Positions 35,591-47,440 of a DNA stretch of 64,000 nt are shown here, piece by piece. The translations under genes and the position numbers were made by a program. Within the stretch, counting starts at the first letter, position 1; every line of letters starts with the position of its first letter. Where the stretch lies: positions 140,002-204,001 of the forward strand of contig CAZMAT010000002.1 in NCBI GenBank assembly GCA_964564435.1, written 5' to 3'. The stretch is from an uncultured bacterium. Its GTDB lineage: Bacteria > Fermentibacterota > Fermentibacteria > Fermentibacterales > Fermentibacteraceae. Under the pieces are notes generated by a model that made no database searches, was not told where the DNA came from, and was given only the letters and a program-made list of their open reading frames with translations.

Positions 35591-35676
35591 GCCGAAGTGG
35601 CGAAATGGCAGACGCGCTAGGTTCAGGACCTAGTAAGGGAAACCTTGTGGGGGTTCAAGTCCCCCCTTCGGCACCA
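35591..35676 (+). tRNA. tRNA-Leu (anticodon CAG), long variable arm, CCA encoded
   Basis: GCCGAAGTGGCGAAATGGCAGACGCGCTAGGTTCAGGACCTAG...CTTCGGCACCA; anticodon loop TTCAGGA; 86 nt. Confidence 0.9.
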
Positions 35677-36899
35677 GACTTCCCCCTCAGACGCGAGACG
35701 CCCTTCATCACCTGTACGGTCAGCCCTATCATCACAAGCCCGAGCAGGACCTTGCCCATTCCTCCCGCCAGTATGGACAGACCCTCCGAGACACCGGTCG
35801 TGTCGCCCGTGCGGATGCAGAGATCCAGCAGGACCCCGCCGGCCAGGACCGACCCGATCTGCCCGGAGACGTTGGCGCTGACGGCGTGCATCAGCAGGAA
35901 GTTGCCCTTGTCCTCCTCCCGTCCGAGCTGCTGGACCAGCCTCGCGGACATGGGGAAGGACGAGAGGCCGGCGGCTCCGATCAGGGGGTTCACCCTGACT
36001 CCGAGAGCATGGAGGATCTTGCCCATGCCCACACCGAACGCGGTGGAGACGATGAAGGCCAGGAGCCCGAGGCCGAAGATCAGGAGGGTCTCCGTCTGCA
36101 GGAAGATGTCGGCCCGCATCGTGGAACCCACTGCGATCCCGAGGAACAGCGTCACGAGACTGGCGAGCGTGTTGCGCGCCGAAGCCGCGAGGCTCTCCGT
36201 GGCCCCCGAGGTGGCGAGGATGTTCCCGAACATCAGGGTGCCTATCAGGGGGATGCTCAGGGGGCTGAGCATGGCGCTGATGAGGATGATGGTGTAGGGG
36301 AATATCTTGAGGAGGACAGGCGGCACTCCGGTCTCCGAAGTCGGCATCCTCACCGCCCGCTCCCTGCGGGTCGTCATCAGCCTCATGATCGGGGGCTGGA
36401 TGAGAGGCACCAGGGCCATGTAGGAATAGGCCGCCAGGGTGACCGACCCCACGATTCGCGGGGCCAGCCTCGAGGCCACCACGATGGAGGTCGGGCCGTC
36501 CGCCGTGCCGATGACGCCTATGGACGCGGCCTCGAAGAGCGGGAAACCTGCTATGAGCGCTGCGAGGAGGGCGCCGAAGATCCCCACCTGTCCGGCCGCG
36601 CCGAAGACGACGAGCCAGGGCCTCTCCAGAAGTGGCTTGAAGTCGAGCATGGCCCCTATCGCGACGAATATCAGGAGAGGGAAAAGCTCGTTGGAGATGC
36701 CGTACTGATAAAGGAGCCCCAGGAAGGAATGGGCCTCCCTCATGGGAGAGAGGGGGAGGTTCACGAGGACCATGCCGAGCCCGATCGGGAGCAGCAGGAG
36801 AGGCTCGTATCCCTTCCTGACGGCGAAACCGATCAGAGCCAGGCCGAAGGCTATCATCGCGGCCTCGCCCGGGCTCGGGAGATAGAGACCCCAGTTCAT
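35655..36899 (-). CDS. Na+-transporting decarboxylase beta subunit (OadB/GcdB/MmdB family)
   Basis: 414 aa polytopic membrane protein: MNWGLYLPSPGEAAMIAFGLALIGF...GPTSIVVA...NLLM. Its 3' end overlaps tRNA-Leu antisense by 22 nt. Confidence 0.8.
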   Translation of the reverse strand: MNWGLYLPSPGEAAMIAFGLALIGFAVRKGYEPLLLLPIGLGMVLVNLPLSPMREAHSFLGLLYQYGISNELFPLLIFVAIGAMLDFKPLLERPWLVVFGAAGQVGIFGALLAALIAGFPLFEAASIGVIGTADGPTSIVVASRLAPRIVGSVTLAAYSYMALVPLIQPPIMRLMTTRRERAVRMPTSETGVPPVLLKIFPYTIILISAMLSPLSIPLIGTLMFGNILATSGATESLAASARNTLASLVTLFLGIAVGSTMRADIFLQTETLLIFGLGLLAFIVSTAFGVGMGKILHALGVRVNPLIGAAGLSSFPMSARLVQQLGREEDKGNFLLMHAVSANVSGQIGSVLAGGVLLDLCIRTGDTTGVSEGLSILAGGMGKVLLGLVMIGLTVQVMKGVSRLRGKSGAEGGT

Positions 36900-37459
36900 A
36901 TCCCTGCTTTCCTCCTGAAGGCCAGCGGACCCGCCGACGAGAGAGGCGGGTTCGAGGAATCGCGCCCGCTCAGCACGGGATCGACGACACCCCAGTCGAT
37001 CCCGTTCTCCGGGTCGTCCCATGCGGTGCCGTACTCGTCGCTGCCGTCGTAGAGGGCGTTGACCACATAGACCATCGAACAGTCGGTCAGCGCGAGGTAT
37101 CCGTGCGCGACCCCCGGGGGGATGAGCACGGAGGCTCCGGAACCGGCCGAGAGCGGGAGGCTCGCAGAAACTCCAAGGGTGGGCGATCCGGGCCTCAGGT
37201 CGATGAAGCCGGCCAGCATGTCACCCTCGACTGGGAACCAGAGGTCGTGCTGCCTGAGATGATAGTGGAGGCCCCGCAGGACTCCCGCTCTCGATCTCGT
37301 GCAGTTCACCTGCAGGTCGCCGCCGAAGACCCCCCCGAACCAGGAGGAGCGGAACACCTCGCGGAAGCTCCCCCGGCCGTCGGGGAAGAATGGGGTGTCC
37401 ACCGTGAGGAGGCCGTCTATCCCGGCCCGGGCCTGGCTGTCCAATGAGCCTCCATCCAT
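36896..37459 (-). CDS. rfbC: dTDP-4-dehydrorhamnose 3,5-epimerase
   Basis: Cupin fold with GVLRGLHYH; 187 aa; ATGA overlap with oadB. Confidence 0.85.
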   Translation of the reverse strand: MDGGSLDSQARAGIDGLLTVDTPFFPDGRGSFREVFRSSWFGGVFGGDLQVNCTRSRAGVLRGLHYHLRQHDLWFPVEGDMLAGFIDLRPGSPTLGVSASLPLSAGSGASVLIPPGVAHGYLALTDCSMVYVVNALYDGSDEYGTAWDDPENGIDWGVVDPVLSGRDSSNPPLSSAGPLAFRRKAGI

Positions 37460-37551: not shown

Positions 37552-38187
37552 GTGAGAGCAAGCGAGCGAGCCGTCGAGATCGTGAGGATCCTGTCGGAGG
37601 AGTACCCCGGCGCCCGCTGCTTGCTGGAGTACGGGAAGGTGCCCTACCGGCTGCTCCTGTCCACGATAATGTCCGCCCAGACCACCGACGAGGCGGTCAA
37701 CAGGGTGACTCCCGCCCTCTGGGAGGCCTATCCCGACCTCGGGAGCCTGGCCGCTGCCCCCAGGCATGATGTGGAGCGGATCATCCACTCCCTGGGCTTC
37801 TTCCGGGCCAAGTCCGCCTCCATCCAGGGGGCTGCGGCATGGCTCCTCGAGAACACGGGCGGCCGCGTACCCGAGTCGTTCGACGACCTGCTCAGGATCC
37901 CGGGCGTCGGACGGAAGACCGCCAACGTGGTGAGGGCCGAGATCCACGGGCTGCCCGCCCTCATAGTGGACACGCACGTGAAGAGGCTCTCCTTCAGGCT
38001 TGGCCTCACTGCCTCGGATGATCCCGGCAGGATCGAGACGGATCTCGAGAAGCTCGTCCCGCCGCAGTCGAGAACCGTCTTCAGCCATTCCGTCGGCTTC
38101 CACGGCAGGAGGGTCTGTACGGCCCGGAAGCCATCCTGCGCCGCCTGCGTGCTCGCATCGCTCTGCCCGAGGAAGGGTCTCGCATAG
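37552..38187 (+). CDS. nth: endonuclease III
   Basis: HhH-GPD LLRIPGVGRKTANVV and a C-terminal 4Fe-4S Cys cluster CTARKPSCAACVLASLCP. GTG 37552 with a GGAGG RBS gives a typical 211-aa Nth. Confidence 0.85.
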   Translation: MRASERAVEIVRILSEEYPGARCLLEYGKVPYRLLLSTIMSAQTTDEAVNRVTPALWEAYPDLGSLAAAPRHDVERIIHSLGFFRAKSASIQGAAAWLLENTGGRVPESFDDLLRIPGVGRKTANVVRAEIHGLPALIVDTHVKRLSFRLGLTASDDPGRIETDLEKLVPPQSRTVFSHSVGFHGRRVCTARKPSCAACVLASLCPRKGLA

Positions 38188-38193
38188 AAAGGA

Positions 38194-38217
38194 GCCGGCC
38201 GCCCGGAGGCGGCCGGC
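38194..38217. terminator. bidirectional intrinsic terminator-like hairpin between convergent nth and repeat-protein genes
   Basis: GCCGGCCGCC-cgga-GGCGGCCGGC: a 10-bp perfect GC stem, 4-nt loop, followed by CTTTC. Confidence 0.5.
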
Positions 38218-38238
38218 CTTTCGATCAGACAGGGATCG

Positions 38239-38877
38239 TCAGTCTATGTCGCCCAGGTCGACCGACCAGTAGAAACCGGCGGCGTCGATCCAGACCTCCC
38301 ACAGGGTGTAGGTGTCGCCGTCCTCGTCCTGGCAGTAGATGTCGTAGTAGTCGTTCGCGGGGACGTAGAAGGTGTAGGAGTCGCCGGGGACGATGGTGCT
38401 GCTGCCGAGGCGGTCGGAGCCCCAGTCGGACGTGGAGGAGGGGTTGCAGTAGACGTAGAAGATCGTCCAGCTCCCGAGGTCGTTGTAGATGGTCACGGGA
38501 GCGCTGCCGCCGCCGGTGGTGACTCCGGTCTTGTCGTCGATGACCGCGGAGGTGGAGGAGTAGTAGTACTCGCCGAGGTCGTCGAGCGTGACGTACCAGG
38601 ACCAGGTCCCGGAGACGGGCACGTCGTACAGGATGTACTCATCGCCGTCCTCGTCTACCAGCCTGATGTCCCATGTGCCGTTCGTGACCGGGAACTCCCA
38701 TGTCTCGCCGACGCTCATGATCTCGCTGCCGAGCCAGTCGGAGCCCCACTCGTCGGAAGTGGACGGCGAGATGTAGACATAATAGATGTCCCAACTGCCG
38801 GTGTCGTTCGTGATCTCGATGGTGCCGGCTGAGGCAGCCATGCCGAGCACGGCAAGGGCAAACAAGGCTTGCTTCAT
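38239..38877 (-). CDS. secreted tandem-repeat protein (2 x ~95-aa W/D/Y/T-rich repeats), unknown function
   Basis: Signal peptide MKQALFALAVLGMAASA. The two repeats are TIEITNDTGSWDIYYVYISPSTSDEWGSDWLGS... and PVTIYNDLGSWTIFYVYCNPSSTSDWGSDRLGS.... Confidence 0.6.
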   Translation of the reverse strand: MKQALFALAVLGMAASAGTIEITNDTGSWDIYYVYISPSTSDEWGSDWLGSEIMSVGETWEFPVTNGTWDIRLVDEDGDEYILYDVPVSGTWSWYVTLDDLGEYYYSSTSAVIDDKTGVTTGGGSAPVTIYNDLGSWTIFYVYCNPSSTSDWGSDRLGSSTIVPGDSYTFYVPANDYYDIYCQDEDGDTYTLWEVWIDAAGFYWSVDLGDID

Positions 38878-39056
38878 ATCCCTCCTCCTGGGAAGTGAGT
38901 GACACCCGCGGAAATTCTAGCACTTGCCGCGGCGGTGTCAATGTCGACACGCAGCGGAGGCTCTTCCGCCCCGCCAGGGATGATACCGCCGGGGCGACGA
39001 TCCATTCCACGGCCTTATATTACGGGACATCGCACGGGCCTCCCTGCCCTGCGGAA

Positions 39057-39079
39057 CCGGAGCCGCGAAGCGGCTCCGG
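39057..39079 (+). promoter_or_regulatory. perfect 10-bp stem / GAA loop hairpin in the 5' leader of the rSAM operon
   Basis: CCGGAGCCGC-gaa-GCGGCTCCGG, 37 nt upstream of the TTG start. Confidence 0.4.
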
Positions 39080-39115
39080 GGACAGCAGACCGCAGGGCCG
39101 GAAGGAGCTGTTTCC

Positions 39116-40180
39116 TTGAACACCACAGGGCAGTTGATGATGGGCATGGACGCGCTCCTGGGCATCCTCGGGAGACGCAGGCCGGTCAACGTGATGATCT
39201 CCATCACCGATCGCTGCCCCAGCCGTTGCGCGTACTGCCAGATCCCGGAGCAGGGCCGGCCGGATCTGCCCACCGCCGTCTGGATCGACCTCATCTCGCA
39301 GATGGCACGGGCCGGGACGAGGCGCATCGGGGTCTGGGGCGGCGAACCCCTGTCGCGTCCCGACATAGCGGAGATCTGCGGGCATGCCAGGAGCCTCGGG
39401 ATCTATGTCAGCCTCGACTCCAACGGATACCTGGTGCCGTCGAGGCCCGAAGTGCTCCGCGCCATCGACCATCTAGTGCTCGCATACGACGGCCCCGAGG
39501 AGGCCCACGACGCCAACAGGCAGCCCGGCAGCCATGCGAAGGTCATGGCCGCGATGGATGCCGCCTCGGGCAGGGTCAGGCTGTGGTCGATCACCGTACT
39601 GACCCGCAACAACATCGGCCACATCGACCACATCCTGTCCGAAGCCGGGAAACGCGGATTCCTCGCCACCTTCCAGACCCTCCACCACAACGACAAGCTC
39701 GGGCGGAACCCCTCGGGCATGATGCCCTCCGCCGAAGAGTACAGGGAGGCCTTCAGGCACCTCCTGGAGAGGAAGAGGGAGGGCGCTCCGATCGCCAACT
39801 CGCCGCGATACCTGAAGAGCCTGGCGGCATGGCCGGACTACCGCTCCACGAGGCTCGCCGGAGCCTTCCACGGGGTTTCCTGCAGGGCAGCGAGGATGTA
39901 CTGCAACGTGGACGTCGACGGCCGCGTCTACCCGTGCTCCCTCCTGATGGGGCTCTCGGACGACGCCCCGGATGCCGTCTCCCTCGGCTTCGACCGCGCC
40001 TTCAGAGCCCTGGGCCCCCTCCCCTGCCAGGCCTGCGTGGCGGGATGCTATACCGAATACAACTACCTGTACGGCCTCTCCGTGCCTGTCGCGCTCGACT
40101 GGTTCGCATCGGTGAGGAGGACCGACAGGGTCATGGCGGAGGCCGCCGCCGGACGGCCCCTGCGAAAGACGGAGAACTAG
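39116..40180 (+). CDS. radical SAM enzyme with C-terminal SPASM/twitch auxiliary Fe-S domain
   Basis: TTG start with an AAGGAG RBS 8 nt upstream. CxxxCxxC = ITDRCPSRCAYCQ. C-terminal cluster CRAARMYC...YPC...PCQACVAGC. 354 aa. Confidence 0.8.
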   Translation: MNTTGQLMMGMDALLGILGRRRPVNVMISITDRCPSRCAYCQIPEQGRPDLPTAVWIDLISQMARAGTRRIGVWGGEPLSRPDIAEICGHARSLGIYVSLDSNGYLVPSRPEVLRAIDHLVLAYDGPEEAHDANRQPGSHAKVMAAMDAASGRVRLWSITVLTRNNIGHIDHILSEAGKRGFLATFQTLHHNDKLGRNPSGMMPSAEEYREAFRHLLERKREGAPIANSPRYLKSLAAWPDYRSTRLAGAFHGVSCRAARMYCNVDVDGRVYPCSLLMGLSDDAPDAVSLGFDRAFRALGPLPCQACVAGCYTEYNYLYGLSVPVALDWFASVRRTDRVMAEAAAGRPLRKTEN

Positions 40181-41656
40181 ATGCCAGCACTGCCGGAGTA
40201 CCTTACACGGGCCCTCCTCGAATCGGAGGGCGTCCCTGTCGTCCCTGGGGTGATGCTCACCTCCGCTCCCGCCTCTGTCGCCGGTTTCCCGGTGTTCCTC
40301 AAGGCGCAGATACCCGGAGCGACCAGCAGGAAGAGCGCGGGTCTGGTGAGGCGGGTCGATTCGCCCGCCGAACTCGGCGCTGTCCTGCCCGACCTCCTGT
40401 CCAGGGACCGCTGCGAAGGCGTCCTGGCGGCCGAAGCTCTCGATATCGAGCTCGAGCTGTATGCCGGGGTGGTGTTCGACGCCGGATCGTCCTCGGCCCT
40501 TCCCGGCGGCAGGCTCCTGTTCAGCCTCGCCGGAGGCTCGGGCATCGAGGCACGGGCCGGCTCCCTGACCGAGATACGCTTCCCGCTCTCGTCCCCCCCA
40601 TCCCCCGGGACCCTGGCGGCCTCCCTCCCGGACGCACCGTGGAGGGCTTCCGCCGCAGACCTCCTGGCCGGCATGGCCCGGACATTCTGCAGGTACAGGC
40701 TCCTCGTCCTCGAGGCCAATCCGCTCGCGGTGCTGCGCGGTGACGGCAGGGTGCTCGTGGTCGACTGCAGGGCCGAATTCGAGGACAGGGCGGTGAGAAA
40801 GGGCGAGGAGGCGCTGTTCGGGACCGCTTCGGCCAGGGCCGGTGACTCGACGCGCCTCGAGAGGATGGTGGGCGCCTTCAACAGCAGCGACCCTGCCGGC
40901 ACTGCCTTCTTCAGGCAGAACAGGGGGACGCCCGCGCCGGGAGCGGTCAGGGTCGCGACCAATCTCTGCGGGGGCGGCGGCAAGATGCTGTGGGAGATGG
41001 CGGTCGGCGGGAGGGACGACATCTTCGCCCTCAACGAATCCGACACCTCCGGAGGGCTCTCGGCGTTCAAGAGCTACAGGTTCCTCAGGGCCGTCCTCGC
41101 CCAGGAGGATGCCGATCTCCTGCTCTTCACGGGATCGGGGATGGCGTTCCAGAGCCAGCTCAACATAGCCGCGGCCATATGGAAGGCTCTGCGCGAGAGC
41201 CCCTGCGTCGTCCCCGTCATGGTGCGGTTCGGCGGCACCGACGAGGACAGGGCGAGGGCGATGTTCGCAAGGCTCGCCGGATCGCTCAGAGTCCCTGTCC
41301 GCACGTACCCCTCCGAGGTCTTCCCCAATGCAATGGTCGACTCCATCCGCGGTTTCCTGGAAGATGCCGGGACGTCCTCGCCCGTCCCGCCCGACTGCCC
41401 TCCCGGGGGATCCCCAGCCTTCGAGGTGGCCGTGCCCCCGGGGAGATTCCACGTAGACGGCGCCAGGTGCGCCGAGTGCCGTGAGAGGCCGTGCCTCGGG
41501 GCATGCCCGACGCACTTCCTGGTCTGGGCGGACGGATCTGGCCCCGCCCCGGCGGAGGGCCAGCGCTGCACGGGCTGCCTGATGTGCGAGGCGGCCTGCC
41601 TTCTCGACGGCTCCGCCGGATTGTTCATCGAACTGGAAATGCCGGAGGTGGAGTGA
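40181..41656 (+). CDS. SucC-like ATP-grasp (NDP-forming acyl-CoA synthetase beta-type subunit) fused to a 2x[4Fe-4S] ferredoxin domain
   Basis: N-terminal ~390 aa align with the succinyl-CoA synthetase beta ATP-grasp and CoA-ligase domains. The C-terminus is a ferredoxin: CAECRERPC...CP and CTGCLMCEAAC. It starts 1 nt after the rSAM stop. Confidence 0.7.
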   Translation: MPALPEYLTRALLESEGVPVVPGVMLTSAPASVAGFPVFLKAQIPGATSRKSAGLVRRVDSPAELGAVLPDLLSRDRCEGVLAAEALDIELELYAGVVFDAGSSSALPGGRLLFSLAGGSGIEARAGSLTEIRFPLSSPPSPGTLAASLPDAPWRASAADLLAGMARTFCRYRLLVLEANPLAVLRGDGRVLVVDCRAEFEDRAVRKGEEALFGTASARAGDSTRLERMVGAFNSSDPAGTAFFRQNRGTPAPGAVRVATNLCGGGGKMLWEMAVGGRDDIFALNESDTSGGLSAFKSYRFLRAVLAQEDADLLLFTGSGMAFQSQLNIAAAIWKALRESPCVVPVMVRFGGTDEDRARAMFARLAGSLRVPVRTYPSEVFPNAMVDSIRGFLEDAGTSSPVPPDCPPGGSPAFEVAVPPGRFHVDGARCAECRERPCLGACPTHFLVWADGSGPAPAEGQRCTGCLMCEAACLLDGSAGLFIELEMPEVE

Positions 41657-41660
41657 GGAC

Positions 41661-42629
41661 ATGGCTGGCATTCTAGGACACCTTGCAGGAATCGACGACC
41701 CCGGCGTGGTCGTCTTCGGGATAACGGGCAAGCAGGGCCAGAGCACGACCAGGGTGATGACGGGATACGGCACCAGGGTGCTCGCCGGAGTCACCCCCGG
41801 CAAGGGCGGCCAGGAGGTCGACGGCATACCGGTGTTCGATTCCTGCGCCGATGCCGTCTCCGCGGTTCCCGGCCTGAACTCGGCCGTGTTCTTCGTCCCG
41901 GCCGGAGCCGTTCTGCAGGCCACGCGGGAGGCTTCCGCGGCCGGGATACGCTTCATGGTCCACACCGCCGACGGAGTCGCTTCGCACGATGCCGCGCTCA
42001 TGCGCGAGATGTCGGTCGACGGCGGCTTCAGGATCGTCGGACCCAACACGGTCGGCATGCTCGACACGTCGGGCTGCCTCTTCGGGCTCATCGGGGGCGG
42101 GGCATCGTGGGCCAGGAGGAACTACCTCCCGGGCTGCGTGGGGATCATCTCGCGCTCGGGGGGGCTCTCCCAGCTCCTGGGCGCCTTCCACTGCAGGCCC
42201 CATCTCCCCGGTCCCCTCCCGGGCGGGGGATACGGCGAGCTCTGGGGCGACGCCGGACCCGGGGTCTCGGCGGTCATCTGCGTAGGGGGTGATCCCGTGC
42301 CGGGGACCACCCTGCTCGAGGCTGCGCTGGCCTTCGAGGCCGATCCGCGCACGAAGGTCATCGCCGGCTACGGCGAGACCGGGACCTCGCAGGAGAACGA
42401 ACTCGCGGAGGCGGTGGCGGGCGGAAGGATCACAAAGCCCGTGGTGCTCTTCCTCGGCGGCAGATTCACCGAGGCGGGGGTTTCGCAGAGCCATGCCGGC
42501 GCGATGATCCGGTGCGAGGCCGAGACATGGGCTGCCAAGCACGAGGCCCTGGTTGCCGCCGGTGTCACCGTGGTGGACAGGCCGGATGCGGTGTTCGGGT
42601 CGGTCGCGGGAGTCCTGGGGCTGGTCTGA
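41661..42629 (+). CDS. SucD-like CoA-binding / CoA-ligase alpha-type subunit
   Basis: VVVFGITGKQGQ (CoA-binding Rossmann), GPNTVGM, and the phosphohistidine loop region GGGYGELW...HAGAM. It starts 4 nt after the previous gene. Confidence 0.7.
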   Translation: MAGILGHLAGIDDPGVVVFGITGKQGQSTTRVMTGYGTRVLAGVTPGKGGQEVDGIPVFDSCADAVSAVPGLNSAVFFVPAGAVLQATREASAAGIRFMVHTADGVASHDAALMREMSVDGGFRIVGPNTVGMLDTSGCLFGLIGGGASWARRNYLPGCVGIISRSGGLSQLLGAFHCRPHLPGPLPGGGYGELWGDAGPGVSAVICVGGDPVPGTTLLEAALAFEADPRTKVIAGYGETGTSQENELAEAVAGGRITKPVVLFLGGRFTEAGVSQSHAGAMIRCEAETWAAKHEALVAAGVTVVDRPDAVFGSVAGVLGLV

Positions 42630-42632
42630 GGG

Positions 42633-43511
42633 TCAGGTCCTTTCGAGCTGGAAGTACCTAGCCCATTCCGTGACCTGGTATCCGGCCCTCTCGAGCAGCA
42701 TGAGCGCGGGTCCGTCGCTTGCGGGGACGGTCTGCCTCGTCCTCGTGCAGCCCCTTTCCGCGAGCATGGACAGGCCGGTCAGCAGTATGGCCGTCCCGAG
42801 CCCCCGCCTCCTGAAGCGGGGCAGGACGCCGAGGAAGTAGAAGGCGCCCTCCTTCGCGTCGAGGCTGTCGAGGCGGGCCATCATCACGCCGGCCGGCTCG
42901 CCTTCCTGCATCACGACCCTGAACAGCTCGGGATCGAACCTGGCGCCCGAGCTCCAGGCCGCGAGATAGCCGTCGAAGTCGATCTCCGCCCAGGGGGTCC
43001 TGCCGGCGCAGTCCTTCGCGATGGCCGCCATCCTCGCCTGTCCGGTCCTCCCCAGGCCGATGGATTCCGGTGCGATGCCGGGAGGCTGCACCCCCGAGAG
43101 CGACCGGGACAGGATCGTGCTGTCGCGGAGGAATCTGAACCCGGCGCCCCTGTAGATCTCCTGCAGCCTCGTCATGTCCTCCCGCGCCTGATCGGAATAG
43201 ACAGCCGCGAGGACGCTCCTGGCCCTGGTCAATGCCGATCTCACCGCTTCGCGCACCAGGGCGGCCTCGAGCTCCCTCGCGCCCGGGGGGTTCCCTACGG
43301 CGTGGGGTATCCCGATCAGGACCTCCCCCTCCTCGCGTTCGTGTCCCGTGAAGATGAAGCCCGCGGGTTCCCCCGACTCGTCGAACGCTCCCAGGTAGGC
43401 CCCGTCGAAGAAGTCGTCGAGAGCGAAGCCGAGGAGATGTCCGGAGAGGAAACCGAGAAGGTCCCTCCTCTCGAGGATCCTGATCTGGTATGCATGACCG
43501 GTGTCGCTCAC
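42633..43511 (-). CDS. two-domain GNAT acyltransferase (MshD/Eis-like architecture)
   Basis: FYFLGVLPRFRRRGLGTAIL motif A in the C-terminal half; 292 aa. Confidence 0.7.
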   Translation of the reverse strand: MSDTGHAYQIRILERRDLLGFLSGHLLGFALDDFFDGAYLGAFDESGEPAGFIFTGHEREEGEVLIGIPHAVGNPPGARELEAALVREAVRSALTRARSVLAAVYSDQAREDMTRLQEIYRGAGFRFLRDSTILSRSLSGVQPPGIAPESIGLGRTGQARMAAIAKDCAGRTPWAEIDFDGYLAAWSSGARFDPELFRVVMQEGEPAGVMMARLDSLDAKEGAFYFLGVLPRFRRRGLGTAILLTGLSMLAERGCTRTRQTVPASDGPALMLLERAGYQVTEWARYFQLERT

Positions 43512-43539: not shown

Positions 43540-44883
43540 TCACCTTATATAGCCGAGATCGCGGAGGGTCCTTCCCACGGTCTCGGCGAAATCCACGACC
43601 GCCGGCGCCCCGGCTGCCGGTGTCGCCCAGTAGGTCAGCGCCTCCGAGAGCAGCAGCGAATCGGCATCGAGCGGGGAGAGCTCGCCGGGGTCGGACATCA
43701 GGTCGAAGGTCTCGGAGCCGCCGGACCCGGTGTCGAATATGACCTTTCTCCCGGAGGCCGTGCACGATGCGAGATCGGCATCCCTCCAGAGCACTCCGCT
43801 GGCGAACACCCGCCTGTCGGGCGGCTCTCCCCCGGCGGCGAACAGATCCAGCCCCGGGCGCCCTGGAGGCGATTCCAGCCCGCACAGCGCGGCAAGGGTG
43901 GGAAGAATGTCCACCTGCGAGGCCGGGGCGGCCGACGATCCATGCCGCACTCCCGGACCGGAGATCACCAGGGGGACGCGGACCGATTCGTCATAGAGGC
44001 TCACTCCGTGTTCGATGCTCCCGTGCTCGAGGAATTCCTCGCCATGGTCGCCTGTAACCGCCACTACGGTGCTCCCGGCGAGTCCCCTCCCCCTCAGGCC
44101 GGCAAGCAGCCTTCCGAGCTGGGCGTCGGAATAGGCTATCTCACCGTCGTACAGGGCGATGAGATTGAAGAGCCCGTCGGCGGGCAGGGTGTCGCCCCCC
44201 TCGTTGATCGCGAGGAGCTGCGGAACGGTACCCCAGGCCGAATCGCAGGGCCCCTGGTAGGCCGGATCGGTGAACATCTCCGAGTAGGGCGCAGGGGGAT
44301 CGTAGGGCATGTGCGGATCGTAGAGGTGGACCACGGCGAAGAAGGGGCGGTCGCCTCCGGTCCCGTCGAGCCAGGACAGGAAGAGGTCGACGGTCTCGCC
44401 CGCCCCCCTCTGCGAAATGCGGTCGCTGAGCCCGGCACAGTCGAACGTGTCGAAACCCACGTGGAATCCGAAGTCCTCGTCGAGGAAGATCACGTTGAAG
44501 AATGCCGCGGTGCGGTAGCCCGCGTCACCGAAGACCCGCTGGATGGTGGGAAGGGCCGGATCGAGCCCGTAGAAGGCGCCGTCCCTGCGACCGGCCATGT
44601 GCTCTCTGGGGGTCAGGCCGGTGAGTATCGAGGCGAAGGCGGGCAGAGTCCAGGATGCCTGGGCACGGAAGTCCGTCCAGCAGGCGCCGGACATCGCCAG
44701 GCTGTCCAGGACGGGGGTCGTGGGCCGCCCGTACCCGAGGCAGGAGACGTGATCGGCCCGGAAGGTGTCTATCACGACCAGCACCACGCTGGGCCCCTTC
44801 GGCTCTCTTCCGCATGCGCAGAGGAGTGCGAGCGCCGACAGCACAGGCAGGAGACGGGCCGTCGGCTTCACGCGGTCACGCAT
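43540..44883 (-). CDS. sulfatase-family (alkaline phosphatase superfamily) lipoprotein with Thr at the nucleophile position
   Basis: VVIDTFRADH...AQASWTLPAFASILTG aligns to the C-x-P-x-R region with Cys replaced by Thr and Arg by Phe. GDHGE motif. The start is chosen at the internal Met that begins the LCAC lipoprotein signal. Confidence 0.65.
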   Translation of the reverse strand: MRDRVKPTARLLPVLSALALLCACGREPKGPSVVLVVIDTFRADHVSCLGYGRPTTPVLDSLAMSGACWTDFRAQASWTLPAFASILTGLTPREHMAGRRDGAFYGLDPALPTIQRVFGDAGYRTAAFFNVIFLDEDFGFHVGFDTFDCAGLSDRISQRGAGETVDLFLSWLDGTGGDRPFFAVVHLYDPHMPYDPPAPYSEMFTDPAYQGPCDSAWGTVPQLLAINEGGDTLPADGLFNLIALYDGEIAYSDAQLGRLLAGLRGRGLAGSTVVAVTGDHGEEFLEHGSIEHGVSLYDESVRVPLVISGPGVRHGSSAAPASQVDILPTLAALCGLESPPGRPGLDLFAAGGEPPDRRVFASGVLWRDADLASCTASGRKVIFDTGSGGSETFDLMSDPGELSPLDADSLLLSEALTYWATPAAGAPAVVDFAETVGRTLRDLGYIR

Positions 44884-47440
44884 GGGCGGCCAGCCAGTCC
44901 GGTCCCCAGCCCGTCTCGGCCCTGAGCGGAACTCCGAGATCCATGGCACCCTCCATCGACTCCTTCAGGATCAGGGCCACCCTGCCGGCCATGTCACCCG
45001 GGCAGGATGCCACCATCTCGTCGTGGACCTGCAGGACCAGCCCCGACCCCGGCACCTCGTCCGCGAGGCGCTTCGCGGCCCGGAGCATGGCCAGCTTCAT
45101 CAAATCGGCAGCCGAACCCTGGACGGTGGTGTTCACCGCCATCCTCTCCATGGCCTTCCTGGCCGTGCCCTTCGCAGCCGCCAGGCCGGCGAACGACCTC
45201 CTCCTGCCGAGTATGGTCCTCGTCTCCCCAGTGGACTCTGCACTGGATATGCAGGCCCTGAGGAAGGAGTCGATCTCCGGATAGGCGTCGAAGTACCGGT
45301 TGATTATCACCGCCGCCCGGGACCTGTCCAGGCCCAGCCTCTGCGCCAGCCCGTGGGCGCTGACGCCGTAGACTATCGAGAAGTTGACCTCCTTCGCCCT
45401 GCGCCTCTGCTCGGGACCGGACGAGCCGAAGACCGCCATCGCGGTCATGGAATGGATGTCGGCATCCTCCGTGTAGGCCTGCCTCAGCTGCCCTTCGCCG
45501 GCCAGGTGGGCCAGGATCCTGAGCTCGATCTGCGAATAGTCCGCACTCACCAGCACTTCCCCGCTTCCGGGGGCCCTGAAGCACTTCCTGAGTGCCCTTC
45601 CCCTCTCCGTGCGGATGGGGATGTTCTGGAGGTTCGGGTCGCTGGAGCTCAGCCTCCCGGTGGCTGTCACGGCCTGGTTGAAGGAGGTGTGCACGAGCCC
45701 GGTGTCGGGCGAGACGAACGAAGGCAGCCTGTCGACGTAGGTCGAGAGGAGTTTGGAGACCTCCCTGTGTTCGGCCACGATCCCCACGAAAGGATGCGCC
45801 CCTGCAAGGTTCTGTAGCACCGTACCGTCCGAGGAGTCAGCCCCCCTGCCCGTCTTCGCGAGTCTGGGGAGACCGAGCCTGTCGAACAGGACGGCCGATA
45901 TCTGGGCCGGGCTCCTGAGGTTCACGGGCGTTCCGATTAGCCGCGAGGCTTCGGCTTCGATGCCTTCGAGCTCCAGCAGCAGGCTGCTCCTCATCTCCGC
46001 GAGGTTCGCCGTGTCCAGGGAGACGCCCCGCCGCTCCATCCCGGCGAGAACGGCCGAGAGCGGGAGTTCCAGGTCGCGATAGATTCTCGAAAGCGATGGA
46101 TCGCGGGCGATCCGGTCCTCCAGGGTCCTGAGGGTTTCGAGGCCCAGGCGCGCCGAGCTGCATGATGCCCGGGCGTGTCTGCCGGTGGCGGCGGCGTCTC
46201 CGGGTGACCCGGGATCGAGGACGTAGGCAGCAAGGCCCAGGTCGCCGGCGGGGGGTTCCGGGCGGGCCCCCATGCTCCATGCCGCGTGCAGGAAACTCTT
46301 GGAGTCGCGGCAGAGAAAGCGCCCCGAGGCGAGTATCTCGGCCATCCCGGCGGGAGGCGTCTCCTCTCCGGCTGTCTCGAAGAACCAGTCCTGCCCCTCC
46401 CCGCCTCCCGAGACGGCGATCTCGCCTGGCGCCCGGTGGATGGATGGCGCTGCGGAGATCTCCACAAAGGGGGTCGATCCTTCCGAAAGGAGGCGGATCA
46501 GCCCTGCAGCGTCGCCGGAAGGCTCCGATGGCGGTTCCTCTCCGACAGGGAGGGACGGGGAAGGCACTCCCGGCGCGGACCGCAGCCCGAGCTTCGCTGC
46601 GAGCGCCCTCATGCCGAATCGTTCCAGGGCGGGGGCAGAATCCGCACCGGGTGGACGCAGCAGGAACGCGGAGGGGTCGCCGGTGCCCGGGGCGTCGTAT
46701 CTGAGCCTGACCAGCTCCAGGCTCATCGCCACCGAGTCCCTCGATTCGACGAGCTTCCGTCTCAGCGACCCGGGCTCCACGGAATCCAGGTGCGCGTAGA
46801 TGTCCTCGACCGAGCCGAATTCCCTCACCAGCATGGACGCGGTCTTCGGCCCCACCCCCCTGGCTCCGGGCACGTTGTCGGAGGAGTCACCCGCGAGGGC
46901 CAGGAGGTCGGCGATGTGCGCCGGCGGGGCACCGGCGACCTCCTCGACCCGATCGGGACCGACGGTCTCCTGGGGCTTTCCGGGGCGCCCCGGCCTGATG
47001 ACCGACACCCTGTCGGAAACGAGCTGCAGGAGGTCCTTGTCGGCCGAGAGCACGATCACTTCCCAGCCGGATGCCTCTGCGCCCCTGGCTGCGGATGCGA
47101 TGAGGTCGTCGGCCTCCCAGCCGGGCTCCTCGAGCGTGCTGATGCCCAGGGCCCGCAGGAGCGCCGGAGCAGCCAGCGCCTGGTCGATCAGCTCCGCGGG
47201 GGTTTCGGGGCGGTTGGCCTTGTACTCCGGGAACAGCTCGTTCCTGAAGCCCGGTTCGTGCGAATCGAAGGCGGCGGCGGCGGCATCCGGCGAGAGCCGG
47301 GCGAGCAGCGTGACCGTCTCCGTCAGGAGATGGTGGAGCCCGCTCGTCACCATCCCGTCGGGAGCCCGCAGGGGATTGCGCGACATGGCGAAGTGGCCCC
47401 GGTAGAGCATGCCCATGCTGTCGACCAGAAGGAGCTTCAC
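44876..47440 (-). CDS. polA: DNA polymerase I
   Basis: 5'-3' exo N-terminus VKLLLVDSMGMLYRGHFAM; 3' pol domain with RRRAKEVNFSIVYG and QVHDEMV. GTG start 47440 overlaps the upstream GT9 stop (GTGA). Confidence 0.88.
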   Translation of the reverse strand: MKLLLVDSMGMLYRGHFAMSRNPLRAPDGMVTSGLHHLLTETVTLLARLSPDAAAAAFDSHEPGFRNELFPEYKANRPETPAELIDQALAAPALLRALGISTLEEPGWEADDLIASAARGAEASGWEVIVLSADKDLLQLVSDRVSVIRPGRPGKPQETVGPDRVEEVAGAPPAHIADLLALAGDSSDNVPGARGVGPKTASMLVREFGSVEDIYAHLDSVEPGSLRRKLVESRDSVAMSLELVRLRYDAPGTGDPSAFLLRPPGADSAPALERFGMRALAAKLGLRSAPGVPSPSLPVGEEPPSEPSGDAAGLIRLLSEGSTPFVEISAAPSIHRAPGEIAVSGGGEGQDWFFETAGEETPPAGMAEILASGRFLCRDSKSFLHAAWSMGARPEPPAGDLGLAAYVLDPGSPGDAAATGRHARASCSSARLGLETLRTLEDRIARDPSLSRIYRDLELPLSAVLAGMERRGVSLDTANLAEMRSSLLLELEGIEAEASRLIGTPVNLRSPAQISAVLFDRLGLPRLAKTGRGADSSDGTVLQNLAGAHPFVGIVAEHREVSKLLSTYVDRLPSFVSPDTGLVHTSFNQAVTATGRLSSSDPNLQNIPIRTERGRALRKCFRAPGSGEVLVSADYSQIELRILAHLAGEGQLRQAYTEDADIHSMTAMAVFGSSGPEQRRRAKEVNFSIVYGVSAHGLAQRLGLDRSRAAVIINRYFDAYPEIDSFLRACISSAESTGETRTILGRRRSFAGLAAAKGTARKAMERMAVNTTVQGSAADLMKLAMLRAAKRLADEVPGSGLVLQVHDEMVASCPGDMAGRVALILKESMEGAMDLGVPLRAETGWGPDWLAAHA

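Follow-up and report, generated by a model that had tools for sequence, protein, structure and literature searches.

Organization of the locus

The window analysed here is a 64,000-nucleotide stretch of contig CAZMAT010000002.1 (assembly GCA_964564435.1, forward-strand positions 140,002 to 204,001) from an uncultured bacterium of the family Fermentibacteraceae. It carries three consecutive genes for a radical S-adenosylmethionine (rSAM) protein, a SucC-like acyl-CoA synthetase beta subunit with a fused C-terminal ferredoxin-like domain, and a SucD-like alpha subunit, which, with a convergent GNAT gene, had been predicted to form a single undescribed system. The rSAM gene (39116-40180, forward strand, 354 aa) starts at a TTG codon, with AAGGAG 8 nt upstream. 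Its TAG stop codon runs directly onto the ATG of the fusion gene (40181-41656, forward strand, 491 aa), which is followed after a gap of 4 nt by the SucD-like gene (41661-42629, forward strand, 322 aa). The positions and order of the three genes and the 4-nt spacer agree with the original prediction, and the 1-nt spacer that it placed at the first junction is in fact 0 nt. The three genes almost certainly share one transcript. The GNAT gene (42633-43511, reverse strand, 292 aa), whose stop codon lies 3 nt from that of the SucD-like gene, is a neighbour and not a part of this module.

The fusion gene has counterparts that are 96% identical in a Candidatus Fermentibacteria metagenome-assembled genome (MAG; locus L013) and 70% identical in Candidatus Fermentibacter daniensis (L014), and the window shares its complete gene order between RNase PH and heptosyltransferase with a 617-kb contig (L007). 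The family was scanned in one genome per species, yielding 582 genomes with a relative of the fusion, and the best 80 loci were examined. Domain calls were based on Pfam and NCBIfam profile scores against curated cutoffs; these profiles bear out the domain calls for the rSAM, fusion and alpha proteins, although all three miss the cutoffs of the named families widely. Fold searches supported the fold classes of the rSAM protein and the ligase without discriminating substrates.

A CoA ligase with a built-in ferredoxin-like domain

The identities proposed for the two ligase subunits are well founded. The beta part of the fusion (40181-41419, forward strand) comprises an ATP-grasp domain and a C-terminal substrate- and alpha-binding domain, as in the nucleoside diphosphate (NDP)-forming acyl-CoA synthetases, the superfamily of succinyl-CoA synthetase (SCS), citryl-CoA synthetase (CCS) and ATP-citrate lyase (ACL), and its fold matches SCS-beta, CCS and ACLY. 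It carries the motifs LEANP (40709-40723, forward) and VDCRAE (40760-40777, forward), and no substitution of the ATP-grasp residues K41, R50, E92, E178-x-N180 and D195 occurs in 20 sequences, the most distant of which has 26% identity. The alpha subunit consists of a CoA-binding Rossmann domain and a phosphohistidine domain (CoA_binding, PF02629, 67 bits; Ligase_CoA, PF00549, 34 bits), and its SHAGA phosphohistidine motif with H278 (42489-42503, forward, aa 277-281) aligns to GHAGA of the solved chain 2yv2. The ATP-grasp residues of beta and the SHAGA motif of alpha place both subunits in the superfamily. Neither reaches the corresponding equivalog: the fusion scores 51 bits against the SucC cutoff of 370 (NF001913) and alpha scores 185 bits against the SucD cutoff of 336 (NF004230). 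Among solved chains, the family profile scores highest against the SCS-beta chain 3ufx (267 bits), followed by the large subunit of Hydrogenobacter thermophilus CCS (212 bits), other SCS-beta chains including those of E. coli and mammals (185-193 bits) and ACL-beta (159 bits). The substrate-loop motifs of SCS are replaced by the family-specific motifs DTSGG (41042-41056, forward) and TGSGMAFQ. Compared with solved SCS alpha chains, the alpha subunit also contains a 19-aa Pro/Gly-rich insertion (aa 179-197, RPHLPGPLPGGGYGELWGD) right after SRSGGLS.

The C-terminal part of the fusion (41420-41656, forward, aa ~414-491) is a ferredoxin-like domain with the two motifs and eight Cys of a 2x[4Fe-4S] ferredoxin. 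Motif 1 (41468-41509, forward, aa 430-443; CAECRERPCLGACP) has the atypical spacing CX2CX4CX3CP, and motif 2 (41567-41599, forward, aa 463-473; CTGCLMCEAAC) is of the form CX2CX2CX3C. The matches of the fusion to ATP-grasp_2 and Fer4 are weak, every Fer4 hidden Markov model (HMM) remaining just under its gathering score; the AlphaFold (AF2) model of the domain is confident (pLDDT ~85-93), and the tail of the family profile finds a match in the ferredoxin subunit of 2-oxoglutarate oxidoreductase. The predicted fusion is real, and its eight Cys are intact in the window protein.

Across the family (20-sequence alignment), variation is absent or almost absent only at C442, C463, C466 and C469. Following the standard topology of 2x[4Fe-4S] ferredoxins, we assign C442, the 'CP' Cys of motif 1, and C463/C466/C469, the CxxCxxC of motif 2, as the ligands of a single [4Fe-4S] cluster. 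A census of Cys in 80-odd proteins found all eight in ~50 of 54 distant members; three Acidobacteriota have lost the other four ligands together, as has nearly every member of the close family outside the Fermentibacter clade to which the window belongs, so that the second ligand set has disappeared in a coordinated fashion in at least two lineages. Most of the rSAM-adjacent fusions of Fermentibacteria have lost one of the two clusters. Because the Fermentibacter clade, with the window, branches first in a neighbour-joining distance tree (indicative only), the pattern fits an ancestral set of eight Cys and one later loss in the close family. With one cluster indispensable and the other dispensable, the domain is more readily understood as carrying a structural or sensory cluster than as a relay passing electrons through two. 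The literature search found no paper on an SCS- or SucC-like ligase with a C-terminal ferredoxin or Fe-S domain, and a CoA ligase of the SCS/CCS type that has two subunits and an integral [4Fe-4S] domain appears to be previously undescribed.

Distribution and genomic context of the ligase family

The fused architecture had been taken to be unusual; instead, the 582 species genomes with relatives span more than 10 phyla, and the hosts include Anaerolineae, Acidobacteriota, Planctomycetota, Aminicenantes, Myxococcota and Fermentibacteria. A word-indexed search retrieved 169 close homologues of the fusion, none of which bears a functional name ('hypothetical' or 'succinyl-CoA synthetase beta subunit'), and an exhaustive search revealed a tight cluster at ≥50% identity, then ~30%-identical, Cys-tailed relatives of 470-540 aa and then plain SucC. 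A SucD-like alpha subunit gene comes after the fusion at the majority of the loci examined (cluster 1, 70 of 83).

Outside Fermentibacteria, the commonest conserved neighbour is a citryl-CoA lyase-like protein, a short member of the citrate synthase family (38 loci), and further neighbour clusters comprise an HD protein (26 loci) and LeuC/aconitase-like (26), LeuD-like (18) and LeuB/isocitrate dehydrogenase (IDH)-like (17) proteins, usually in the order fusion, alpha, lyase, HD, large hydratase subunit, small hydratase subunit, dehydrogenase. The lyase neighbour scores 237 bits against the NCBIfam citryl-CoA lyase cutoff of 212 and aligns over its full length to the solved chain 6hxp, 'Citryl-CoA lyase' (E = 1.5e-55). 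In L008 its place is taken by a non-homologous CitE-type lyase, the only one of this type against the 38 loci with a lyase of the Ccl type. The substrate-region motifs of the ligase are the same in Fermentibacteria as in the lyase-adjacent members from Myxococcota and Planctomycetota. A trio of 'SCS alpha/beta + citrate synthase' in a Planctomycetes bin has been interpreted previously as CCS plus citryl-CoA lyase (CCL; PMC5459899). On the basis of genome context rather than biochemistry, a citryl-CoA-synthetase-like ligase is the best-supported assignment for the family formed by the fusion and its alpha subunit. The possibility that the fusion belongs to a widely annotated pathway is thus half borne out: its setting outside Fermentibacteria is that of the known two-step citrate cleavage by CCS and CCL, and the Fe-S version is not so annotated.

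The operon of ligase::ferredoxin, alpha, lyase, HD, LeuC, LeuD and LeuB/IDH recurs in loci L038-L092 (for example L059, 10001-16500, L066, L072 and L050), from hosts that include Anaerolineae, Acidobacteriota, Planctomycetota, Aminicenantes and Gemmatimonadota, sometimes with PrpD or a second LeuCD pair added; it could represent an unrecognised route of citrate cleavage or of ATP-yielding citrate synthesis. Many homologues of the long citryl-CoA-lyase-like partner (P0434, P0436, P0445, P0450, P0473 and similar proteins) are fused to a CoA-ligase alpha domain as type-II ACL-like AclA proteins, found in Aminicenantes, Bipolaricaulia, Asgard and Thermoplasmata MAGs. A Rosetta-stone link through such alpha::CCL fusions was considered and rejected, their alpha parts being just 26-30% identical to the alpha subunit of the window.

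The radical SAM protein and its relatives

The first gene of the operon encodes a member of the radical SAM superfamily as predicted, with a PF04055 match of 64 bits (cutoff 29.5), the cluster motif CX3CX2C (39215-39238, forward, aa 34-41) and the SAM-binding motif GGEP (39338-39349, forward, aa 75-78); in structure searches the fold matches SuiB, PqqE and viperin. C34, C38, C41 and GGEP are invariant in the rSAM family, and so are all six auxiliary Cys, arranged as C256-x6-C263-x5-G-x4-C274 and C304-x2-C307-x3-C311 (39881-39937 and 40025-40048, forward). The first half of this arrangement fits the seven-Cys SPASM pattern (C256-x12-G-x4-C274), whereas the second half reads CX2CX3C and not CX2CX5CX3C. 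Because the SPASM HMMs stay below threshold (TIGR04085, 14.3 vs 27 bits; PF13186, 15.8 vs 21.5 bits) and match only the initial ~24 positions, the C-terminal domain, described at first as SPASM/twitch, is judged from its sequence to be partial SPASM/twitch-like. The best named NCBIfam relatives, PqqE, PTO1314 and MftC, score 55-79 bits against cutoffs of 265-381, and the rSAM core begins at ~aa 25, without an N-terminal peptide-recognition domain.

This rSAM protein belongs to a well-conserved orthologous family, members of which in other phyla are 45-52% identical. In ~64 loci from other uncultured lineages (≤52% identity), no ligase lies alongside. Two contexts recur there: an FAD amine-oxidase-like protein, a DegT aminotransferase, the rSAM, a Tes/HMPTM-type rSAM, a U32 peptidase and B12-rSAMs; and PMT_2, the rSAM, Phosphodiest and PMT_2, at times with DUF362. 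These contexts outside Fermentibacteria look like envelope or lipid modification clusters, the type of setting in which most of the ~64 loci lie. The rSAM-rich clusters with relatives of the window protein (L010, L011, L094, L098, L103, L107, L111, L148, L162, L163 and L167) hold, besides the FAD amine-oxidase-like, DegT aminotransferase and U32 peptidase genes, a Tes/GDGT-MAS-type (Zn_ribbon_HMPTM) rSAM, several B12-rSAMs and a ~265-aa protein without a known family, and may serve lipid or envelope modification in uncultured bacteria.

In most Fermentibacteria, the rSAM gene stands between the fusion and a DUF362 gene (~340 aa) that overlaps the rSAM start (L003-L009 and others); DUF362 also accompanies the rSAM in L012, L109 and L153. 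A tblastn search across the 64 kb of the window found no match to DUF362, and a remnant of the gene was rejected on these grounds. Because it is also absent from L013, L014 and L018, the loss is one at the level of the clade. DUF362 shares Pfam clan CL0471 with the N-terminal domain of the LarA racemase (PMC11770544) and is distantly related to the LarA 2-hydroxyacid racemases. No paper joining DUF362 with a radical SAM protein was found in the literature search.

Separability of the radical SAM gene and the ligase pair

The rSAM and DUF362 genes are neighbours of the fusion in Fermentibacteria only, and none of the ~64 fusion loci outside this phylum has an rSAM gene beside the fusion. The link is also broken in the opposite direction: among 16 informative metagenome loci of Fermentibacteria type, four (L112, L145, L158 and L132) carry the rSAM gene without the ligase pair. 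The clearest of these is L112, a clean empty site with the order nth, repeat protein, DUF362, rSAM, GNAT (reverse) and polA (reverse), which corresponds to the backbone of the window minus the fusion, the alpha subunit and a sulfatase-family gene. The GNAT gene lies downstream of the ligase pair only in close relatives (L007) and directly follows the rSAM gene in L112, where there is no ligase pair, which argues against its being a component of the system, as had been suggested. Conservation of the neighbourhood of the fusion, which had been put forward as a check, holds for the fusion and its alpha subunit and not for the rSAM link, which is confined to a single phylum. The flanking genes (nth, repeat protein, peptidase M1 and PRK) are likewise kept in synteny phylum-wide, so that conserved gene order is weak evidence of function in Fermentibacteria. 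The adjacency of rSAM and ligase looks like the product of one insertion or inheritance event rather than of repeated selection.

Leader region and flanking genes

The leader (38878-39115, forward) is a divergent promoter region containing a hairpin, the ribosome-binding site AAGGAG (39100-39105, forward) and a minus-strand promoter. The hairpin (39057-39079, forward), a perfect 10-bp stem with a GAA loop and no T-run, exists as predicted and is not conserved even in the 96%-identical relative: its segment is the only part of the leader that differs in L013, where the sequence is unrelated, and the stems of other relatives are unrelated too. The folding z-score of the leader is -3.4 in the window and -0.07 in L013, the latter no more stable than shuffled sequence. 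A conserved hairpin or riboswitch element was rejected on account of the difference from L013, the lack of an Rfam match for the leader and the missing T-run. Open reading frames (ORFs) of ≥15-20 aa were compared between the leaders of the window, L013, L014/L119, L018 and L158 without finding a conserved small ORF. A leader-encoded precursor peptide was rejected; the 74-aa ORF is 73% identical as protein versus 93% as DNA.

Divergently from the operon, a strong, near-consensus sigma70-like promoter (TTGACA-16-TAGAAT, preceded by TG; 38941-38914, reverse) precedes the gene of a secreted repeat protein (38239-38877, reverse, 212 aa), a neighbour outside the module with a signal peptide and two ~85-aa W/D/Y-rich repeats. 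It has no family match in domain searches and is conserved in Fermentibacteria at 0.2-6 kb from the operon. Between nth and this gene, 38182-38279 gives sub-threshold Rfam matches to Hrs10 (26.5 vs 108 bits) and Hrs13 (20 vs 52 bits), which are probably due to chance. Further upstream (2 kb), a Na+-translocating decarboxylase beta subunit gene (OAD_beta, 421 bits; 35655-37022, reverse) is syntenic in L007. Downstream, the GNAT gene is convergent as described, and of the double domain proposed for its product only the C-terminal half is detectable as GNAT: aa ~184-285 match GNAT models and structures, and the N-terminal half has no match even at E ≤ 1. The adjoining sulfatase-family gene (43540-44949, reverse) encodes T-L-P-A-F-A-S-I-L-T-G in place of the formylglycine motif C/S-x-P-x-R-x4-T-G, and its product is probably a Thr-nucleophile enzyme of the alkaline phosphatase superfamily and not a true sulfatase.

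Interpretation of the locus

With moderate confidence, we consider the locus to be an operon of Fermentibacteria that joins two independently spread units, an Fe-S citryl-CoA-synthetase-like ligase and an unrelated rSAM protein. The ligase (40181-42629) would be a heteromeric ADP/NDP-forming enzyme in which beta binds ATP while alpha binds CoA and swings the phosphohistidine H278. The ferredoxin-like domain at the C terminus of beta would hold a pair of [4Fe-4S] clusters in this protein and a single one in most relatives, and the universally retained cluster may be structural or act as a redox or O2 sensor for the ligase rather than as an electron wire. From the conserved neighbours elsewhere, we infer that the ancestral reaction of the family was citrate + ATP + CoA <-> citryl-CoA + ADP + Pi; citryl-CoA would feed, or be fed by, citryl-CoA lyase, in a two-step citrate cleavage or its ATP-yielding reversal. 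The Fermentibacteria ligase probably keeps the family chemistry, because its substrate-region motifs equal those of lyase-adjacent members. The rSAM unit (39116-40180), a protein of ~350 aa with a partial SPASM/twitch domain, would be biochemically uncoupled from the ligase and probably does not act on a ribosomal peptide.

Several observations weigh against this explanation. Homologues of citryl-CoA lyase, CitE, aconitase and IDH were found neither in the 64-kb window nor in the 10 kb flanking the operon at 23 Fermentibacteria loci, and none of the 120 best homologues of the lyase partner bears a Fermentibacteria label; resting on the window, 10-kb flanks and the best 120 homologues, the lyase negative is weak evidence. 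Kirkegaard et al. reported that 8 of 10 enzymes of the tricarboxylic acid (TCA) cycle are missing in Fermentibacteria (PMC5030696), because of which the citrate assignment may fail in this organism. For the alpha subunit, SCS alpha (2yv2, 159 bits) is a better match than the small CCS subunit CcsB (101 bits). Finally, rSAM, fusion and alpha are contiguous in ~30 Fermentibacteria loci, with junctions of 0-15 nt or overlapping and with fusions only ~50% identical, and this contiguity could reflect real functional coupling. Because most TCA enzymes are reported missing and no lyase was found, the substrate here could be a di- or tricarboxylate other than citrate, or citrate itself, possibly handled in the ATP-forming direction.

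That the pair is instead a divergent SCS, as its JGI label has it, or a ligase of another C4/C5 dicarboxylate such as malate or itaconate, working in the ATP-forming direction in a fermenter, is unlikely, if still a credible reading. Both subunits find their best matches in SCS chains, fumarate reductase and fumarase genes precede the pair in L008 and L047, OAD_beta is encoded nearby, and the pair could be the two of 10 TCA enzymes present in Fermentibacteria (our inference from PMC5030696); the literature search found no paper on Fermentibacteria with an SCS. Both subunits nevertheless miss the SCS equivalog cutoffs by far, the substrate-loop motifs of SCS are replaced, citryl-CoA lyase is the leading conserved neighbour, and a C-C lyase follows the pair even in L008 (CitE-type) and L047 (Ccl-type). 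The original prediction saw one pathway in the locus, with the acyl-CoA or acyl-phosphate made by the ligase used by the rSAM or GNAT protein and the fused ferredoxin as dedicated low-potential donor of the rSAM cluster. The tight packing of the operon, the persistence of the rSAM-fusion-alpha block despite deep divergence, the apparent lack of the usual lyase and TCA partners in Fermentibacteria, from which the pair would need another role there, and the fact that all are Fe-S proteins of an anaerobe speak for it, and we still hold it improbable. The adjacency occurs in a single phylum only, a pattern compatible with one insertion and vertical descent thereafter; both units stand alone in dozens of loci, four of them of Fermentibacteria type with the rSAM and no ligase; the conserved partners of the ligase are citryl-CoA lyase, aconitase-like and IDH-like genes; the ferredoxin domain is older than the association, being present in ~64 rSAM-free loci; most rSAM-adjacent fusions retain one cluster only, which speaks against a dedicated electron donor; and the GNAT gene is not kept with the block. 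An integrated rSAM-ligase-GNAT system is thus weakly supported; most likely, the proposed 'system' is an operon particular to this lineage in which two separable modules adjoin.

Fermentibacteria seem to lack citryl-CoA lyase and most TCA enzymes, and the Fe-S ligase may alternatively have been recruited with the rSAM and, in most lineages, DUF362, to convert a hydroxy- or polycarboxylic acid into a CoA thioester for radical chemistry, with the ferredoxin as the point of electron entry, a scenario that we likewise regard as doubtful. Least probable is that the rSAM protein is a peptide or protein maturase, with the secreted repeat protein, a precursor that escaped annotation or, in an anSME-like role, the sulfatase-family protein nearby as its substrate. 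Among its closest structural or sequence relatives are SuiB, SkfB, CteB and PqqE, which mature peptides, as well as anSME, and the sulfatase-family gene lies 1 kb downstream; the small-molecule enzymes viperin, BlsE, DesII and MoaA are structurally just as close. The locus shows neither the adjacent precursor nor the RiPP recognition element (RRE) or PqqD-like element that mark maturases of ribosomally synthesized and post-translationally modified peptides (RiPPs): the rSAM core begins too near the N terminus to leave room for a recognition domain, a PqqD-like gene was not seen near the rSAM in any locus examined, and small leader ORFs are conserved only between near-identical genomes, in agreement with the original remark that no precursor ORF is evident upstream. 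The repeat protein, originally named as the only nearby candidate substrate, can be as much as 6 kb distant in other Fermentibacteria. An anSME role was rejected on the T-L-P-A-F sequence at the formylglycine motif and on the absence of the sulfatase-family gene from most loci.

If the family is indeed a citryl-CoA synthetase, surveys for ACL or Aquificae-type CCS may miss it under the labels 'hypothetical' or 'SCS beta'; it would open a way to study how redox state or oxygen controls citrate cleavage or synthesis, and it would provide an intermediate form in the evolution of ACL and citrate synthase. A 'succinyl-CoA synthetase' annotated in Fermentibacteria should not be taken as a TCA remnant. 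The rSAM coupling carries less weight because it is apparently a matter of lineage-specific gene order.

Comparison with known systems

One close parallel is the CcsA/CcsB and Ccl system of H. thermophilus (6hxq, 6hxp), which performs the two-step citrate cleavage of the reductive TCA cycle (PMC5459899, PMC9802188). The family shares with it a two-subunit SCS-like ligase, encoded in relatives of the window beside a short (~260 aa) citryl-CoA lyase, and among solved chains the CCS large subunit ranks second by family profile and gives the highest query TM-score (0.52, tied with one ACLY chain). The family differs in its C-terminal [4Fe-4S] domain, which extends ~75 aa past the end of the match to solved CCS, in an alpha subunit nearer to SCS alpha than to CcsB, and in its occurrence in many phyla other than Aquificae, with no lyase partner found in the window or in Fermentibacteria. 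CcsA/CcsB are not the closest characterised chains for either subunit, given the higher scores of SCS alpha over CcsB and of 3ufx over CcsA.

SucCD (Thermus aquaticus 3ufx, E. coli 2scu) provides the best single-sequence matches and shares the fold and the catalytic machinery; the window pair departs from it in scoring far under the equivalog cutoffs, in its substrate-loop motifs, in the fused Fe-S domain and in the 19-aa alpha insertion, and the context of the family is citryl-CoA lyase rather than sdh/sucAB. ATP-citrate lyase (type II, AclA-type alpha::CCL) belongs to the same superfamily, and the long lyases of the close family (367-404 aa) are 50-65% identical to the CCL part of such fusions. 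In contrast, the alpha parts of these fusions are only 26-30% identical, the window subunits are unfused, and the Fe-S tail is matched by no solved ACL chain. The rSAM protein, for its part, finds its best matches among the SPASM/twitch enzymes (PqqE, SuiB, SkfB, anSME and BlsE), with which it shares the CX3CX2C core and C-terminal auxiliary Cys; it misses their named families (PqqE, 79 vs 381 bits), has six auxiliary Cys ending in CX2CX3C, and is encoded without the partner peptide or RRE.

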